Virus genome (UHGV): UHGV-0071665
Direction: 5' to 3' (one strand)
DNA length: 10,901 bases
Source of the DNA: a virus
In this document: positions 1,752 through 10,851 of the stretch, piece after piece
Position numbering within the stretch: the first letter of the stretch is position 1
How the letters are laid out: each line of letters begins with the position of its first letter
Position numbers and translations under genes: made by a program
Notes under the pieces: generated by a model
Database searches by the model: none
Told to the model about the DNA's origin: nothing
Seen by the model: the letters and a program-made list of their open reading frames with translations, nothing else

Positions 1752-2230
1752 GAGAACTAAACCTCACCAAAGAGCAGCACGAGTGGCTGAATGGCTGGCT
1801 TGAACTGTGGGGGGCATGGGTTTATTCAGGTCGTCTTGAAAAGCGCATGAGCAGCGTAATAGCGAAGTTCATGGAGAGCGTAGAGCCGGGAAGAGTTATG
1901 ACAAGGCCAATGTGCAATGATGATGATGGAATGTTGATTTCTCAGGTCGTCGATTCCGTCATGTACATTGACAAGAAAGCCTTTGGCATCCTCCTCAGCT
2001 ACTACGCCCATGGATCTTCCAAGCACGCCATTGCATCTTACTATCATCGCGTCGCAAGACCTCGCAAGATGTTATGCCGGGGCGGAGGGCGCATTCAAAA
2101 ACCATCGCTCGCAACCTGTCGTCGGGAAGTTGACGAAATCCTCAATGCCTCGTTGTTTATGATTTACCCGGTTCTGGATAGTGCGTTTAAAAACCGGAAA
2201 CGTGTAGAGAAAATTAAACATGTAGCATAG
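1742..2230 (+). CDS. Late-gene antiterminator, Q family (not lambda-Q type)
   Basis: 162 aa ORF immediately after ninH and before a promoter-like sequence and hairpin terminator, the position Q occupies in lambdoid phages. Cys/His-containing C-terminal half. Family assignment rests on position and general resemblance. Confidence 0.6.
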   Translation: MGIRELNLTKEQHEWLNGWLELWGAWVYSGRLEKRMSSVIAKFMESVEPGRVMTRPMCNDDDGMLISQVVDSVMYIDKKAFGILLSYYAHGSSKHAIASYYHRVARPRKMLCRGGGRIQKPSLATCRREVDEILNASLFMIYPVLDSAFKNRKRVEKIKHVA

Positions 2231-2236
2231 AACGTG

Positions 2237-2267
2237 TTGACATCATTGAGCAAATGAGCAACACTAT
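2237..2267 (+). promoter_or_regulatory. Candidate late (PR'-like) promoter
   Basis: Perfect TTGACA at 2237-2242, 7 nt after the Q stop. The -10 is poor (aacact / cactat at 17-19 bp spacing), so the call rests mainly on the -35 and position. Confidence 0.25.
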
Positions 2268-2274
2268 TCGCATA

Positions 2275-2320
2275 AGCTGCCGTTAGTGACTCTTAAGTTG
2301 CAACGGTGGCTTTTTTATTT
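2275..2320 (+). terminator. Intrinsic terminator-like hairpin with T tract (tR'-like)
   Basis: Stem of about 10 bp (2275-2284 with 2302-2311, two G-U pairs) around a 17-nt loop, followed by ttttttattt at 2311-2320. Confidence 0.45.
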
Positions 2321-2395
2321 GGGTCAGTCGTATAAAGGTCATTACGGAAGGCTGTTAACCTTCTTATCGTGGTTCGAGTCCACGCTATCCCGCCA
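2321..2395 (+). tRNA. tRNA-Asn (anticodon GUU)-like gene, possibly degenerate
   Basis: Hand-folded cloverleaf. Anticodon arm gaagg/ctgttaa/ccttc (anticodon GTT); T-arm cgtgg/ttcgagt/ccacg; 3' end ctatccc-g-cca; D-arm with GG in the loop. Acceptor stem has two adjacent mismatches (positions 4-68 and 5-67). Confidence 0.5.
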
Positions 2396-2400
2396 AACAT

Positions 2401-2424
2401 GCTGGTTTAGCTCCAATGGTAGAG
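2401..2424 (+). other. Truncated tRNA-like 5' fragment (acceptor strand plus D-arm only)
   Basis: gctggtt-ta-gctc-caatggta-gag looks like tRNA positions 1-24, starting 5 nt after the preceding tRNA. No anticodon arm, T-arm or matching 3' acceptor strand follows; the sequence runs into the HNH ribosome-binding site. Confidence 0.3.
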
Positions 2425-2431
2425 GTGGTAA

Positions 2432-2857
2432 ATGCCGAGCAAAGATTACTATCTTAATCGAAGGGCTAGGCTTGCTAAGACCGTGGAAAAGTTGGGTGGT
2501 CGTTGCGCGAGTTGCGGATCCGAATATTCGCTTCAGTTTGACCACATAGACCCTTCCACCAAATCAGCAAATGTAAGCGAGATGCACTATCACTCAGATT
2601 AGGTGTTTTATGCTGAGGTTGAAAAGTGCCAACTACTATGTTCTGCATGCCACATTCAGAAAACCAAATTTGACCTTAGCTACTTAGTAGCTGGTGAGCT
2701 GAATGGTATGAGCAAGCTAACAATGGACAGCGTCCAGTTCATCAGAGAAAACTACATTCCACGACATAAGGTTTATGGAGCCAGAGGGCTAGGGAGAATG
2801 TTTGGTGTAACACATCAAACAGTGCTTTCAGCCTTAAATGGCGAAAGCTGGAAATAA
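2432..2857 (+). pseudogene. HNH endonuclease ORF interrupted by an in-frame amber codon (TAG 2600-2602)
   Basis: Hand translation from ATG 2432: MPSKDYYLNRRARLAKTVEKLGGRCASCGSEYSLQFDHIDPSTKSANVSEMHYHSD, then TAG, then the same frame continues as the track ORF 2603..2857 (VFYAEVEKCQLLCSACHIQKT...). Together the halves carry the HNH signature (CxxC, DH, then LLCxxCH). GAGG at 2422-2425 precedes the ATG. Confidence 0.6.
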
Positions 2858-2867
2858 GCTGCGCGTC

Positions 2868-2894
2868 AGAGGTTCGATTCCTTTGCCCGCTCCA
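2868..2894 (+). other. Orphan tRNA T-arm-like motif followed by CCA
   Basis: agagg/ttcgatt/ccttt forms a T-stem-loop, followed by gcccgct-cca. No matching D or anticodon arm upstream, since that sequence is the HNH coding end. Could be a tRNA remnant or chance. Confidence 0.25.
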
Positions 2895-2900
2895 GTAAAA

Positions 2901-2945
2901 GCTTTCCAGTCTGCGATGATGGGTTCCCCGGAGTGACTGGAAAGC
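2901..2945. repeat. Perfect 11-bp inverted repeat around a 23-nt loop
   Basis: gctttccagtc (2901-2911) and gactggaaagc (2935-2945) are exact reverse complements. No T tract follows. Confidence 0.6.
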
Positions 2946-3274
2946 GACCTGGTTTTGAATGGGCGCTGCTTTTTGCAAAATTGCTGTGTGAAAATACTGA
3001 CCTTTGGGTTCAGCGCTCATCCAAAAGCATCACGTGAATTCACCAACGCTCATGTACTCTCCAGGAAACAATAAGTGATTCTGAAAAGTTCCGGTTAGAT
3101 ATTGCCCCGGTCACCGGATGATTTTATCTTTTGGTTCGTGGTGAATCCCCCTATGCGGCGGGGCGTCCAGTCAAACTTTTTTGTCCAGGTTTGTTTGCGC
3201 GGAACTAGTCGGCTGGGGCTGTTCCACCGGGAGGCACCCGGCGCCACCTCCTTGACGGTATTGTTATTTTTCAT

Positions 3275-3301
3275 GCCTGTTCGTCCGAGCAGGCTTTTTT
3301 T
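3275..3301 (+). terminator. Rho-independent terminator
   Basis: 8-bp GC-rich stem (gcctgttc / gagcaggc, one G-U pair) with a 4-nt loop, followed by seven T (3295-3301). Confidence 0.7.
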
Positions 3302-3711
3302 GCCCGCATTATCTTCATTGAAAACTGGCAACTCAGAGAATCATCCAAATTAAAAAAGCAGCAACGAGAGCGATTACTAATACATTCTTCGCTTTTTCTC
3401 TTCTGCTGGCCTTCACAAAAGGATTCACTATCCGGCAGTGGCTACACACAAGTGATTCTGGGTTAATTAACTTTCCGCAGTAGGGGCAGGGCTTGATAAT
3501 CATTGGTACTAATTAAGTTGTGAGAACGTAGTCTCATTTAACCACATTTATCGAGTTGTTTTACTAATGGTCTAGTTATTTCAGACATATTCATCAATTT
3601 CAGGCTCACGGGAATCATCCGCTACGTGCTTTGTTGATAAATCCAGCCCGTGAAGCCTGACCCTTTTCAAACACACACACAGCACCATCCGGAAAATCGG
3701 AGGTGAGGCCT

Positions 3712-5133: not shown

Positions 5134-5631
5134 ATGAAATCATTAACCCTCTTCAATCAACCAATTCGTATCGGTGAAGATGGCATGATCTGCCTCACTG
5201 ATATGTGGAAAGCTAGTGGTAAAAGTGAATCTGAATCGCCTTACCACTACCTGCGAAACAAGCAGACCAAAGAGTTCTTAGCCGAGCTGGAGAAAAACCA
5301 CGAATCTGTGGTTTTTACTGAGCGCGGTGTACACGGTGGAACATATGGCGGGAAGTTTGTTGCTTACGATTATGCGGCTTGGTTAAACCCCGGGTTCAAG
5401 TACGCGGCCTATAAAGTCCTCGATGACTACTTCACCGGAGAACTTCAGCATCGCAACAGCTTAAGTGCGCAGCTCAACATGAAATGTCATGAGTTTGACC
5501 AGAAGAAAGACATGGCGAGCTTCTGCGGACAAGGGCTGGCAGCATGGCGCTATACGAAGCCAGTGTTGGTCGCTGAGATTAACTCCCTGGCTAACCAGCT
5601 GCAGATTACGATCCCCGGGCTTCCGGGATGA
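5134..5631 (+). CDS. KilA-N domain protein
   Basis: 165 aa; the N-terminal pattern IRIGEDGMICLTDMWKASGK...EFLAEL...GG.YGGKFV..D.A.W..P matches the KilA-N fold signature as I recall it. Confidence 0.65.
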   Translation: MKSLTLFNQPIRIGEDGMICLTDMWKASGKSESESPYHYLRNKQTKEFLAELEKNHESVVFTERGVHGGTYGGKFVAYDYAAWLNPGFKYAAYKVLDDYFTGELQHRNSLSAQLNMKCHEFDQKKDMASFCGQGLAAWRYTKPVLVAEINSLANQLQITIPGLPG

Positions 5632-5885
5632 GTGATCGTGTCATTGAATGCGCCTCCAGAGCGGGGCGCGACTTCTCAGAGTTCATGAAAGGCGAGAAGG
5701 GCATGAGGGAAGCATTGGCCTCGGTGGATGAGTTTGGCGAGCAGCTGCGCCTCAACGGCTGTGTCAATCATCACTTTGTTAGCTACATGATGCGGAACTC
5801 GATCATGCAGGCATTCATGGACATGGCAAAAGCCGAGAGGAAAGAAGAGCGCCGGCGTAAGCGAGCGGAAGCAAAAGCGAAGTAG
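5628..5885 (+). CDS. Hypothetical small protein with a basic C-terminal tail
   Basis: 85 aa ORF, ATGA-coupled to the KilA-N gene; C-terminus KAERKEERRRKRAEAKAK. No family recognised. Confidence 0.45.
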   Translation: MSDRVIECASRAGRDFSEFMKGEKGMREALASVDEFGEQLRLNGCVNHHFVSYMMRNSIMQAFMDMAKAERKEERRRKRAEAKAK

Positions 5886-6237
5886 CCATTACAAAGCCCA
5901 TCTACGGGTGGGCTTGATAATGAAACCGTGATTTACATCCCCACAATCCGGGTATGTAAAAGATAGTTCAGGCGAGAACAGATTTAACTAAATCTGTGCA
6001 CCACCAGTTACGGCAGTACCACGAAGCAACCCAAGCCAGTAAGTGGGGAAATAACACTGGCAGCCACTGAAAGATGAACCTCCAGCCTTATGGCAAAAAA
6101 GATTCTTTGTGGTGGCGGGCTGATGGAAAGACATCGGTTATTGCAGAGGCCATTCAATGAGTGGTCTCGACAATGGCTTATACCCTGCACGGGATAACTT
6201 AACTGATATCCCTTTTAACGGATAAACGGAGCCAACA

Positions 6238-6393
6238 ATGGCAAAGCTCACCGACAAACAAGAGCTGTTTGCCCGTGAGTACCTGAAAGATTTAAACGCC
6301 ACACAGGCAGCTATCAGGGCGGGTTGGGCAAAAGCTCAACAACATGCCGTATTACCGCGCGAAACAATACGCGCAGATGCTTGGCATCGATGA
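6238..6393 (+). pseudogene. Terminase small-subunit N-terminal stub (51 codons)
   Basis: ORF below the track's size cut-off, translated by hand: MAKLTDKQELFAREYLKDLNATQAAIRAG, then unrelated sequence (WAKAQQHAVLPRETIRADAWHR) and a stop. The first part matches the conserved N-terminus of small terminase subunits as I recall it. Good SD (GGAG, 8 nt spacing). Its 3' end overlaps the next ORF by 50 nt. Confidence 0.55.
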
Positions 6394-7981
6394 AAACACG
6401 CTGATGGCGATGCGGCGCGGCATGAATGGCTTTACCGCCGATTACCAGTCGATGCTGCAAAAGACAGGGTTCAACGCTGATAAAGCGGCTGTTCAGTCCA
6501 ACAAATTCATGACGTCCATGCGCGGGCTTACGTCGCTGTTCGGCATCATGCGGGACAAGATCGGCTCAAACCTCGCTGGTGGCCTGGCTGGTTCGCTGGA
6601 CAGCCTGCGGCGGCGCATCCTCGACAATTTCCCGAAGATTGAAGAGACGCTGACCAGAGTTATTAAAGGCGTGATCTGGCTTGCGAACGCATTCACGAGA
6701 ATGGCGTGGCGGCTGATACAGGGCGCTGGCTCTGTCATCGACTGGTGGAAGCGTCTTGACGATGGCAGTAAAAATCTGCTGAAAATATTCGGTGCTCTAC
6801 TGGTCGCATGGCGTCTGCTTAATTCTGCGTTCCTGAAATCCCCGATTGGAATTATCACCACACTGATTCTGGCGATCGGATTGCTGTACGACGATTACCA
6901 GACGTGGAAAGAGGGCGGTAAAAGCCTGATTGACTGGTCCAAATGGCAGCCAGAAATTGAGCAGGCAAAGAAGGTGTTCAAGTGGCTGCGCGATAAGTTT
7001 CTGGAGCTCAAGGACAACCTCGGCGGCTGGAAAAATACGCTCACCATCCTGTTTGGCTTTCTGGCTGGTGCGAAGCTGGTCTCCATGCTCACTGGCATCG
7101 GGCGACTTGTCGCCGGATTTATGGGGCTTGGTAAGGCAATTGGCGGCTCTATTGGTGGGCTGGGTAAGCTGGCGCAGGGGATCGCACAGCTGGCAATCAA
7201 GAATCCATGGTTGCTTATGTTCATTCCTGCCAACAATACGCCGACCACCAGTGAAGAAATGGCGTCGATTGGCGGTATAGGCAGCAATATCGTACCTGAA
7301 AGGCAGCAGGCATATGAGGCGCTGAGAAAGGAAAATCCCGGCAAAGACTTTTTCACTGATGAGCAAATCCAGCGAAAAATTCAGGAGATGGGACTGGAGC
7401 CGGAGCAGCGAGCGCAGTCGGTTAAGCGACCTCAGGCGACGGCCCAGGGCAAGGTATTGCTCGACTGGATGGGGCCAATGTTCAATAAACTGGAGTCGCT
7501 TTATCAGCTGCCAGCTGGCCTGTTGAAAAGCGTGGCGATCACCGAGTCGGGTGGTAACCAGTTCGCCATATCCGGCGCAGGCGCGAAAGGACTGTTTCAG
7601 TTTATGGATGGCACGGCGCGCGACATGGGCCTGCGTGGGAATGATGTATTCGACCCGGAAAAGTCAGCTCAGGCAGCCGCTAAGTACCTCAGCCAGCTGT
7701 TGCGGCAGAACGGCGGAGACCTTAGCAAAGCACTGGCATCATATAACTGGGGGATCGGGAATGTTAAGCGTTATGGAATGGGGCTAATGCCGCAGGAAAC
7801 GCGCAACTACATTCCGAAAGTGATGAGCAATATGCCCACCAGCGCCCCGGTGATTCAGCAGGAAACGAACATTAACATCCACGGCGTTTCCGATCCGCGC
7901 GAGGCTGCCCGTTTGACTGTTGACCGTCAAAAGGGCGTGAATTCACAGTTAACCCAGCAACTCCCCGCAGGACCGAGATAA
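6344..7981 (+). CDS. Tape-measure protein, C-terminal portion, with lytic transglycosylase (SLT) domain; probably 5'-truncated
   Basis: 545 aa with Gly-rich hydrophobic stretches (GIGRLVAGFMGLGKAIGGSIGGLGKLAQGIA) and an SLT-type motif (ITESGGNQFAISGAGAKGLFQFM...AAKYL...ASYNWGIG). First in-frame ATG has no convincing RBS, and the frame is open upstream only to 6296. Confidence 0.7.
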   Translation: MPYYRAKQYAQMLGIDENTLMAMRRGMNGFTADYQSMLQKTGFNADKAAVQSNKFMTSMRGLTSLFGIMRDKIGSNLAGGLAGSLDSLRRRILDNFPKIEETLTRVIKGVIWLANAFTRMAWRLIQGAGSVIDWWKRLDDGSKNLLKIFGALLVAWRLLNSAFLKSPIGIITTLILAIGLLYDDYQTWKEGGKSLIDWSKWQPEIEQAKKVFKWLRDKFLELKDNLGGWKNTLTILFGFLAGAKLVSMLTGIGRLVAGFMGLGKAIGGSIGGLGKLAQGIAQLAIKNPWLLMFIPANNTPTTSEEMASIGGIGSNIVPERQQAYEALRKENPGKDFFTDEQIQRKIQEMGLEPEQRAQSVKRPQATAQGKVLLDWMGPMFNKLESLYQLPAGLLKSVAITESGGNQFAISGAGAKGLFQFMDGTARDMGLRGNDVFDPEKSAQAAAKYLSQLLRQNGGDLSKALASYNWGIGNVKRYGMGLMPQETRNYIPKVMSNMPTSAPVIQQETNINIHGVSDPREAARLTVDRQKGVNSQLTQQLPAGPR

Positions 7982-9960: not shown

Positions 9961-10851
9961 GTGGGTACAAATAAGAACGGAATTCGATATAGCGCACTTT
10001 TTCTTTCCGGGTTGCTCTTATCCGGGGGCGCGAGTGCAGGCTTTAATTCCGCGCAGAACGCTGAGTACAAAAGACGTCCAGGATGGCAGCCGATAGTAAT
10101 TTTATCGACAGATGATTGTCAGACATGGAAATCTAAAGGGAAGTCACTAATTGACTGGAGTGGCGAGATCTGTGGTCCTGACGGGTTGATTAAGGCAATC
10201 AATAAAAAGCCGGAGAATATACCAGCTTTTTATGCTGCATATCATGAGTACGGCACAGGTGGAGTTAGGGCTATCGATGTAAGAGATAATTCTCAGCTAA
10301 ATTATCTCAATTTTGTAAATGATTTAGCTAAGAAACTTTCTTCTTCGGCTGTTGTATTAAAGATTTATGATGATTATATCATTGATAGAAAACCCATGGG
10401 GCTTGCAGAGGTTTCACGAGAAAATTTTGTAAAACAGCTAAATGAGTTATCGCTGAAGCAACCTGCCATCTATCAAAAAATGAACGACGTAGCCAAGGCT
10501 GATTACGAGAAAAGTAGTAATGTTCACAGTAACGAAAAGCTTGGCGTGAATTACAAAACAGTCTGTGGTCCTTATACGATTGATCTGTCTTCTGCTGATG
10601 GTTGGGCCAGAATTAATGGCGCAAAACCAGAGACGCAAAAAATTAGCCCAATCGGCTCTGGTGGTAGCACCAAAGGGGAACCGGATAACATCAAGATGGA
10701 GTGGATGGCTGCCACTAATCAACCCGGCCGCTGGGTTGGGCTTGAGTACATCAAGCGCAACGGAAAAGCTATTCTCAACGCACAGTGGTTGCAGGCCAGC
10801 ATAGACGCGCCGCGCCAGTATGCAACATACGACTGCCGAAAAGTAAAATAG
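9961..10851 (+). CDS. Secreted/periplasmic protein with Sec signal peptide; moron-like accessory gene
   Basis: GTG start with a strong AGGAGG SD 7 nt upstream. N-terminus MGTNKNGIRYSALFLSGLLLSGGASA|GF is a classic signal peptide with an AXA site and no lipobox Cys. Four Cys in the mature part. Central part about 33% GC (10261-10460) against about 51-57% at the ends. Followed by a hairpin. Confidence 0.6.
   Translation: MGTNKNGIRYSALFLSGLLLSGGASAGFNSAQNAEYKRRPGWQPIVILSTDDCQTWKSKGKSLIDWSGEICGPDGLIKAINKKPENIPAFYAAYHEYGTGGVRAIDVRDNSQLNYLNFVNDLAKKLSSSAVVLKIYDDYIIDRKPMGLAEVSRENFVKQLNELSLKQPAIYQKMNDVAKADYEKSSNVHSNEKLGVNYKTVCGPYTIDLSSADGWARINGAKPETQKISPIGSGGSTKGEPDNIKMEWMAATNQPGRWVGLEYIKRNGKAILNAQWLQASIDAPRQYATYDCRKVK

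Follow-up and report, generated by a model that had tools for sequence, protein, structure and literature searches.

In T5-like phages the HNH endonucleases F-TflI/II/IV are encoded in the tRNA region, and group I introns, some of them with endonuclease ORFs, are found in the anticodon loops of bacterial and phage tRNA genes. Homing endonuclease genes reportedly pass through a cycle of gain, decay and loss, as set out in the model of Goddard and Burt. The tRNA cluster of bacteriophage T4 contains SegB, a GIY-YIG homing endonuclease whose recognition site includes the conserved T-psi-C motif (PMC2330249), and I-TevIII of T4 is described as a defunct homing endonuclease (PMC2790892).

The locus analyzed here contains an HNH ORF interrupted by an amber codon and is part of a DNA stretch of 10,901 nucleotides (UHGV virus genome UHGV-0071665), which in its entirety is referred to below as the window. 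Like segB, the HNH gene is a free-standing endonuclease gene among phage tRNA genes with presence/absence polymorphism in related phages; a recognition site that includes a conserved tRNA-gene motif and inheritance that depends on integrity of the gene would be further points in common. Unlike the HNH protein, SegB belongs to the GIY-YIG family, and its gene lies between tRNA genes and interrupts none of them. The activity and homing of SegB were demonstrated experimentally whereas those of the HNH protein are predicted, and the hosts of segB are virulent T-even phages whereas those of the HNH gene are temperate lambdoids. With I-TevIII the HNH gene shares mutational inactivation of a homing-type nuclease gene in an insertion that nevertheless persists, and several independent truncations within the same family are a further likeness to defunct homing genes. 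However, I-TevIII is encoded within an intron and mobE can mobilise it in trans, and no helper endonuclease is evident for the HNH gene.

The F-Tfl genes have the catalytic domain and the location in a phage tRNA cluster in common with the HNH gene, but the C-terminal domains and the hosts differ and the F-Tfl genes are intergenic. A tblastn search also gave 44–45% identical N-terminal matches in large Escherichia and Serratia phages, where they are annotated as 'putative homing endonuclease'. Group I introns of tRNA genes resemble the HNH cassette in being inserted in the anticodon-arm region; in contrast to them, the cassette has no ribozyme, consists essentially of the ORF and is accompanied by the deletion of 12 tRNA nucleotides.

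The analysis described below indicates that the HNH ORF very probably represents a free-standing HNH gene of the homing type that was inactivated when a C to A change at position 2601 converted Ser57 to an amber codon. The codon itself is of little importance: the mutation is a plain nonsense one, the gene is of an already known type, and the ORF should be annotated as a pseudogene, not as evidence of suppression or of an alternative code. Of modest value is the anatomy of the locus, which would represent a clean, datable case of a selfish nuclease gene invading a dispensable phage tRNA gene and then decaying.

Prophage surroundings of the HNH ORF

The window covers the genes for late regulation and lysis in a lambdoid prophage. 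The order within it is antirepressor, YbcO, RusA, NinH, Q of the phage-21 type, pR'/tR', tRNA-Asn, HNH ORF, sRNA, holin, lysozyme and Rz. The surrounding features referred to in the text are as follows.

1742–2230, + strand: Q antiterminator gene, phage-21 type (Pfam Phage_antitermQ, 87 bits; 489 nt, as phage 21 Q; TAG stop)
2237–2320, + strand: late promoter pR', Q-binding element and terminator tR', as predicted from 99% identity to the annotated phage 21 region 39499–39694
2321–2395, + strand: tRNA-Asn(GTT) (ARAGORN; Rfam tRNA, 51 bits)
3113–3305, + strand: STnc100-family sRNA, context only (Rfam RF02076, 71.7 bits against a gathering score of 47)
6238–6325, + strand: first ~29 codons of a small-terminase gene (Pfam Terminase_2 positions 1–31 only; broken at ~6323–6325)

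The positions of the pR' −35 and −10 elements, the Q-binding element (QBE) and the terminator are predicted ones, carried over from the phage 21 annotation. Since pR' and tR' are placed 5' of the HNH ORF, the latter would be included in the Q-dependent late transcript. The tRNA-Asn-like gene that the initial annotation had recognized ahead of the ORF is indeed a tRNA-Asn(GTT). It carries a private G to A substitution at 2387, in the 3' acceptor strand, which turns the C5-G68 pair into a C5-A68 mismatch, and its predicted MFE is −17.8 kcal/mol versus −21.6 kcal/mol for the phage 21 allele. The U4-U69 mismatch of the same tRNA is already present in phage 21. The STnc100 match is full-length and ends in a terminator-like hairpin; it has the tRNA remnant on one side and the holin gene on the other.

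The truncated terS is joined to an SLT-domain protein and a Dit-like and baseplate module (6238–6344). BLAST analysis of 5900–6700 revealed a break at query positions 424–426, no complete E. coli genome was found to span the terS/SLT junction at ~6323, and the window lacks genes for large terminase, portal, head and tail. The junction could be explained either by a deletion in a defective prophage or by a chimeric contig produced in assembly. The HNH copy looks like one residing in a defective prophage, and both the truncation of terS and the mutation in the acceptor stem of tRNA-Asn fit with decay.

Reading frame, active-site motif and amber codon

The HNH ORF extends over 2432–2857 on the + strand and comprises 141 codons in one frame (translation of 2432–2860), which reads MPSK...CASCGSEYSLQFDHIDPSTKSANVSEMHYHSD*VFYAEVEKCQLLCSACHIQKT...NGESWK* (asterisks, stops). 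The first stop is an in-frame amber codon at 2600–2602 and the second is the terminal TAA at 2855–2857; the initial annotation had placed the end of the ORF at 2860, which is 3 nt too far. The Shine-Dalgarno sequence noted there was confirmed as GAGGTGG, 5 nt 5' of the ATG. The ORF is divided as follows.

2432–2602, + strand: N-terminal HNH fragment, 56 codons and TAG (CxxC zinc pair C25/C28, D37-H38 catalytic dyad)
2600–2602, + strand: premature amber codon (A2601 is C in all intact relatives, giving TCG, Ser57)
2603–2857, + strand: C-terminal HNH fragment, 84 codons and TAA (KCQLLCxxCH with C70, C73 and H74, followed by a three-helix HTH-like DNA-binding domain)

The frame is 96–99% identical to an annotated 141-aa HNH endonuclease (WP_001568783.1), and as a coding sequence it lies far beyond chance. 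The protein also matches PHROG 4234, 'HNH endonuclease' (E = 1.8e-21). When Ser is restored, the 141-aa protein scores 23.4 bits with Pfam PF01844, above the cutoff of 21.4, whereas the N-terminal and C-terminal fragments alone score 13.5 and 13.4 bits, both below it. The proposal that a whole HNH signature is encoded in one frame and that the TAG divides its catalytic core was thus borne out. In alignments of 20 and 36 HNH sequences C25, C28, D37, H38, C70 and H74 are invariant and C73 nearly so. All elements of the superfamily motif, namely the catalytic His after a beta strand, the metal-binding His in a helix and two CxxC pairs, are present, and they are split by the TAG after residue 56: C25-x-x-C28 and D37-H38 are on its 5' side and C70-x-x-C73-H74 on its 3' side. 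In the AlphaFold model of a 96%-identical protein (P0001, pLDDT 91) residue 57 is at the start of a short helix that has the DH strand on one side and the Cys/His helix on the other. In the model a low-confidence linker at about residues 81–90 leads to the C-terminal domain, which consists of three helices and stands as a separate unit.

Because the stop lies between the catalytic Asp-His strand and the Cys-x-x-Cys-His helix, the translated product stops at residue 56, and consequently neither a complete beta-beta-alpha-metal active site nor a four-Cys zinc site can be formed. This demonstrates that the TAG allele encodes at most a 56-aa N-terminal fragment without half of the active site. A GTG codon (2603–2605) directly follows the TAG, which makes synthesis of an 84-aa fragment by termination-reinitiation conceivable. 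Such a product has an exact match in one contig, Logan SRR11185245, where the ORF was called by the gene caller, and it would contain the domain that is modelled as independent. It could be argued from this that the TAG creates two functional pieces, either a split HNH enzyme that re-associates or an independent 84-aa HTH protein that binds DNA and might, for instance, occupy the target site. We consider this extremely unlikely, since no Shine-Dalgarno sequence precedes the GTG, neither piece contains the whole zinc site (C25, C28 / C70, C73) or the whole catalytic motif, and the allele, present in only two near-identical sequences, shows no sign of selection.

The initial annotation left a choice between a fresh pseudogene, a sequencing error and an ORF dependent on amber read-through, and suggested alignment with intact homologues and a search for the same TAG in related prophages. 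The alignment gave a sense codon opposite the TAG throughout. In all other close copies, about 30 near-identical sequences from E. coli, Enterobacter, IMG/VR and metagenome contigs, this codon is TCG (Ser), and the TAG is therefore explained by a single C to A change at 2601. The complete genomes of E. coli KL53, NCTC 13148, L6-21 and PEC422 contain the same locus at 96–99% identity, with an intact, annotated 141-aa HNH gene and, in the DNA alignment, TCG opposite the TAG. Among the ORFs extracted from close copies TCG was present in 24 of 26, and TAG only in the window and in the Logan contig (L011). We retrieved 17 prophage contigs from IMG/VR and found TCG in all 14 whose ORF could be extracted automatically; the IMG/VR scan contained no match to the TAG allele. 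Enterobacter and other loci reached through the HNH protein also have TCG, as do all four of the metagenome contigs that matched a pattern with N at the variable base. The exact pattern of either allele had no match in GTDB contigs, a set that holds one genome per species and is hence uninformative on this point. In distant homologues (34–57% identity) the position is variable, with S, R, K, D, E or T and never a stop. The TAG is thus not a conserved feature of related prophages, having been seen outside the window in one non-identical Logan contig only.

That contig, SRR11185245, shares both the TAG and the private T139S with the window, from which it differs over 706 nt in 1 nt (G instead of A at 2480). 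The predicted 56-aa N-terminal product is identical to DAE77802.1, 'MAG TPA: HNH endonuclease [Caudoviricetes sp.]', and an exact look-up of contigs encoding the 56-aa fragment returned none. As two non-identical sequences carry the TAG, it is probably a real and recently inherited allele, common to a small lineage, rather than a one-off error. An error in sequencing or assembly, with TCG as the true codon and an intact HNH gene, would account for a single-base difference from about 30 relatives. The window is probably a metagenome-assembled contig, since its 56-aa product corresponds to a 'MAG TPA' entry, it also contains the suspicious terS/tail junction, and it could stem from samples related to those of the Logan contig, so that a systematic error is conceivable. 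Nevertheless, we regard this explanation as very unlikely: SRR11185245 was assembled separately and shares the TAG and T139S, yet it differs at 2480, and a C to A substitution is not a typical homopolymer or indel artefact.

Neither a conserved stop nor a suppressor tRNA or avoidance of TAG, as would be expected for read-through, was found. Three ORFs of the window are ended by TAG, namely Q, 5628–5885 and 9961–10851, and Q has its normal length. On the basis of this stop-codon usage, in which TAG serves other ORFs of the window as a normal stop, an alternative genetic code was rejected. The only tRNA that ARAGORN detected in the window is tRNA-Asn(GTT), and no suppressor tRNA is present there. 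Programmed or host-dependent read-through would provide the full-length enzyme only in suppressor hosts or at a low level, for instance to limit toxicity of the nuclease. Only two points favor it: the frame 3' of the TAG is fully open and 99% identical to active-looking copies, and the base after the TAG is G. However, any nonsense mutation that arose very recently would leave the downstream frame open. With a sense codon in every homologue examined, no suppressor tRNA in the window and TAG serving as the normal terminator of Q and other genes, we regard the probability of such read-through as close to negligible. Sense codons in the homologues together with a non-conserved TAG are also the outcome that the initial annotation had named in advance as refuting it. 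Of the three possibilities raised initially, it is the fresh pseudogene that is supported, as the window differs at this codon from intact TCG copies by one nonsense substitution.

Intact copies of the HNH gene are under purifying selection (median dN/dS ~0.20 over 60 pairs). The protein is widespread: its 90% cluster has 59 members, one of which is present on 301 contigs of E. coli and Enterobacter. Compared with the closest intact copy, the TAG lineage has three changes, A17T, S57* and T139S, none of them synonymous; these fit with relaxed constraint but are too few to demonstrate it. Other copies have been broken independently, giving a frameshifted 94-aa variant and fragments of 124, 87 and 79 aa. 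In E. coli ECONIH5 (L006, 1593–1800; also in strain C 236-04A) the 5' fragment of the tRNA-Thr gene described below and the first ~95 nt of the HNH ORF are kept, after which the sequence jumps to a lambda-type holin region, identifying this as an independent deletion remnant of the HNH cassette. The family therefore displays the mixture of selected intact and degenerate copies that is expected of a homing gene.

Insertion of the cassette in tRNA-Thr(UGU)

A tRNA-Asn gene and then a tRNA-Thr(UGU) gene follow 3' of Q in phage 21 and Sf6 as well as in hundreds of prophages of E. coli, and the similarity of these sequences to the window stops at 2424. Comparison with them divides the region as follows.

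2401–2424, + strand: 5' fragment of tRNA-Thr(UGU), phage-21 type (acceptor strand and D-arm, identical to phage 21 tRNA positions 1–24)
2425–2854, + strand: inserted cassette of ~430 nt, nearly all HNH ORF, replacing tRNA-Thr positions ~24–35 (occupied versus empty sites)
2855–2894, + strand: 3' part of tRNA-Thr(UGU), Enterobacter-phage ENT1 type (anticodon-loop U36 through T-arm)

The truncated tRNA fragment seen ahead of the ORF in the initial annotation corresponds to the first 24 nt of phage 21 tRNA-Thr(UGU); ARAGORN finds no tRNA in 2401–2424. A second tRNA fragment (2855–2894), which had escaped notice, is located directly after the ORF. The sequence TAAGCTGCGCGTCAGAGGTTCGATTCCTTTGCCC starts right at the HNH stop codon and matches exactly the 3' part, from U36, of the tRNA-Thr of ENT1 and close relatives; the exact match between 2855–2894 and the ENT1 tRNA-Thr extends over 35 nt. 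Judged from these alignments, the HNH gene is inserted within tRNA-Thr. The suggestion of a free-standing HNH gene in a phage tRNA cluster was consequently right in spirit, but the gene does not merely follow tRNA remnants; it is located inside tRNA-Thr and flanked by its two halves.

At the insertion point 12 nt, ACGGCAGCCTTG, corresponding to approximately tRNA positions 24–35 (the end of the D-arm through the second base of the anticodon), are swapped for the ~430-nt cassette. The borders of the ORF make use of the tRNA sequence on both sides: AGAG at the end of the 5' fragment, in the D-stem, forms part of the HNH Shine-Dalgarno sequence, and the HNH stop TAA (2855–2857) is U36-A37-A38 of the anticodon loop. 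The last ~10 nt of the 3' part in the window have been recombined onto the 3' end of a tRNA-Gly (CTCCA) and HK639-like downstream DNA, with 92% identity to the corresponding tRNA-Gly end and downstream DNA of HK639. Enterobacter-type loci retain the whole 3' end of tRNA-Thr and the ENT1-type downstream sequence. In copies of the Enterobacter asburiae type (L019–L022, L028, L032) the 3' end of tRNA-Thr, ~40 nt past the ORF stop, is GGCACACAG and not GGCACCAG; in these the CCA end of the dead tRNA-Thr half has started mutating.

The joined tRNA-Thr halves do not fold as a cloverleaf, and the acceptor strands in the window are not complementary. Since the acceptor halves cannot pair and the loss of 12 nt has removed two anticodon bases along with the 5' half of the anticodon stem, splicing cannot restore tRNA-Thr. 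A permissive Rfam scan of 2200–3400 gave no intron family, and a group I intron was rejected on the grounds that there is no ribozyme, that the ORF fills the insert and that 12 tRNA nucleotides are missing. A tRNA hidden in the 3' end of the HNH ORF, as found in relatives, was also considered and rejected: the bases before the TAA form no anticodon stem, and ARAGORN finds nothing there.

The same 12-nt replacement at the same position was observed in every occupied locus, which constitutes the precise presence/absence polymorphism expected of a homing gene. An uninterrupted ENT1-type tRNA-Thr is present on 86 IMG/VR contigs; of these empty sites at least 25 have the left flank of occupied sites and at least 34 the right flank. 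The tRNA gene ahead of an occupied site is tRNA-Asn, tRNA-Gly or tRNA-Phe, and empty sites occur behind all three. The junction of the cassette is identical in two diverged alleles of tRNA-Thr, the phage-21 type, present in the window, KL53, L011 and L023, and the ENT1 type, present in the remaining occupied loci. The insertion destroys the tRNA-Thr sequence that is the presumed cleavage target.

Proposed mobility of the HNH family and phage tRNA genes

Association with tRNA genes extends beyond the lambdoid prophages. Two 57%-identical homologues are encoded by unrelated phages with large tRNA arrays, and in both a Thr-like tRNA 5' fragment ending after the D-arm is followed by a Shine-Dalgarno sequence, the ORF and TAA, immediately after which there is an intact tRNA-Thr(UGU). 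We analyzed 62 homologue loci and found that the ORF abuts or overlaps a co-oriented tRNA gene in 20. In 13 of these (L040, L043, L057, L058, L068, L072, L077, L085, L086, L093, L099, L100 and L101) the 3' end of the ORF overlaps an intact, co-oriented downstream tRNA gene by 1–39 nt, and the other seven ORFs end 0–40 nt upstream of a tRNA gene. Six of the 13 overlaps are of 10 nt and involve tRNA-Lys, and in L057 the stop codon of the HNH homologue is inside the anticodon loop of a tRNA-Tyr. From these coordinates, same-strand overlap of a protein gene with a tRNA gene seems to be a habit of this HNH family. No description of same-strand overlap between HNH ORFs and tRNA genes was found, nor was one of an HNH gene inside the lambdoid tRNA-Thr gene in the literature searched; the paper on the epsilon34/P22-like genome notes just Asn and Thr tRNA genes at the corresponding position.

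From the presence/absence polymorphism and the family context we infer homing activity with tRNA-Thr as its target, and the following scheme may be suggested. The cassette is carried within tRNA-Thr(UGU) in the Q-dependent late transcript of lambdoid prophages, where the D-stem would lend part of the ribosome-binding site to the HNH ORF and the anticodon loop its stop codon. The intact enzyme would cut uninterrupted tRNA-Thr alleles of co-resident phages, and repair of the break would copy the cassette in. In the carrier the cutting site would be destroyed by the insertion itself. Once fixed, or stranded in a defective prophage as the copy in the window probably is, the gene would escape selection and decay.

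It could be supposed instead that the intact gene is a non-mobile housekeeping HNH gene of the phage, for example for a terminase-associated packaging factor or a nuclease directed against competing DNA, that landed once in the tRNA cluster; its loss in the window would still be simple pseudogenization. Mosaic recombination among lambdoid phages could spread a single ancient insertion across different flanks, and few E. coli genomes have the cassette (4 of the 843 that carry the region), while an efficient homing element would be expected to be commoner. However, the gene is not adjacent to terminase genes, and its presence or absence is confined to one exact position of the tRNA, at which empty sites are numerous. 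Most of the related phages lack it, showing that it is dispensable. The identical junction in two diverged tRNA-Thr alleles and the location of one third of the family, in unrelated phages, next to or across tRNA genes also argue against a non-mobile gene, which we find rather unlikely.

For the homing-type gene preferred here, a broader proposal can be made tentatively, with a likelihood that we place slightly short of even: the HNH lineage, apparently undescribed, may home straight into phage tRNA genes without an intron, using conserved tRNA gene sequence as its target. If this is true, HNH genes would shape the tRNA repertoire of both temperate and virulent phages. A family with reading frames set against or across tRNA genes may account in part for the uneven tRNA content of lambdoid prophages, in which Asn only, Asn-Thr or Asn-Gly-Thr is found, and it could supply endonucleases that recognize tRNA-gene sequences.

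A different HNH gene was observed in the same interval of a similar prophage. In E. coli UTME-3 (L005, 1724–2236) an unrelated 170-aa HNH gene is located between pR' and a tRNA-Asn/tRNA-Thr/tRNA-Gly cluster. The interval between Q and the lysis genes seems to be a hotspot for endonuclease genes.
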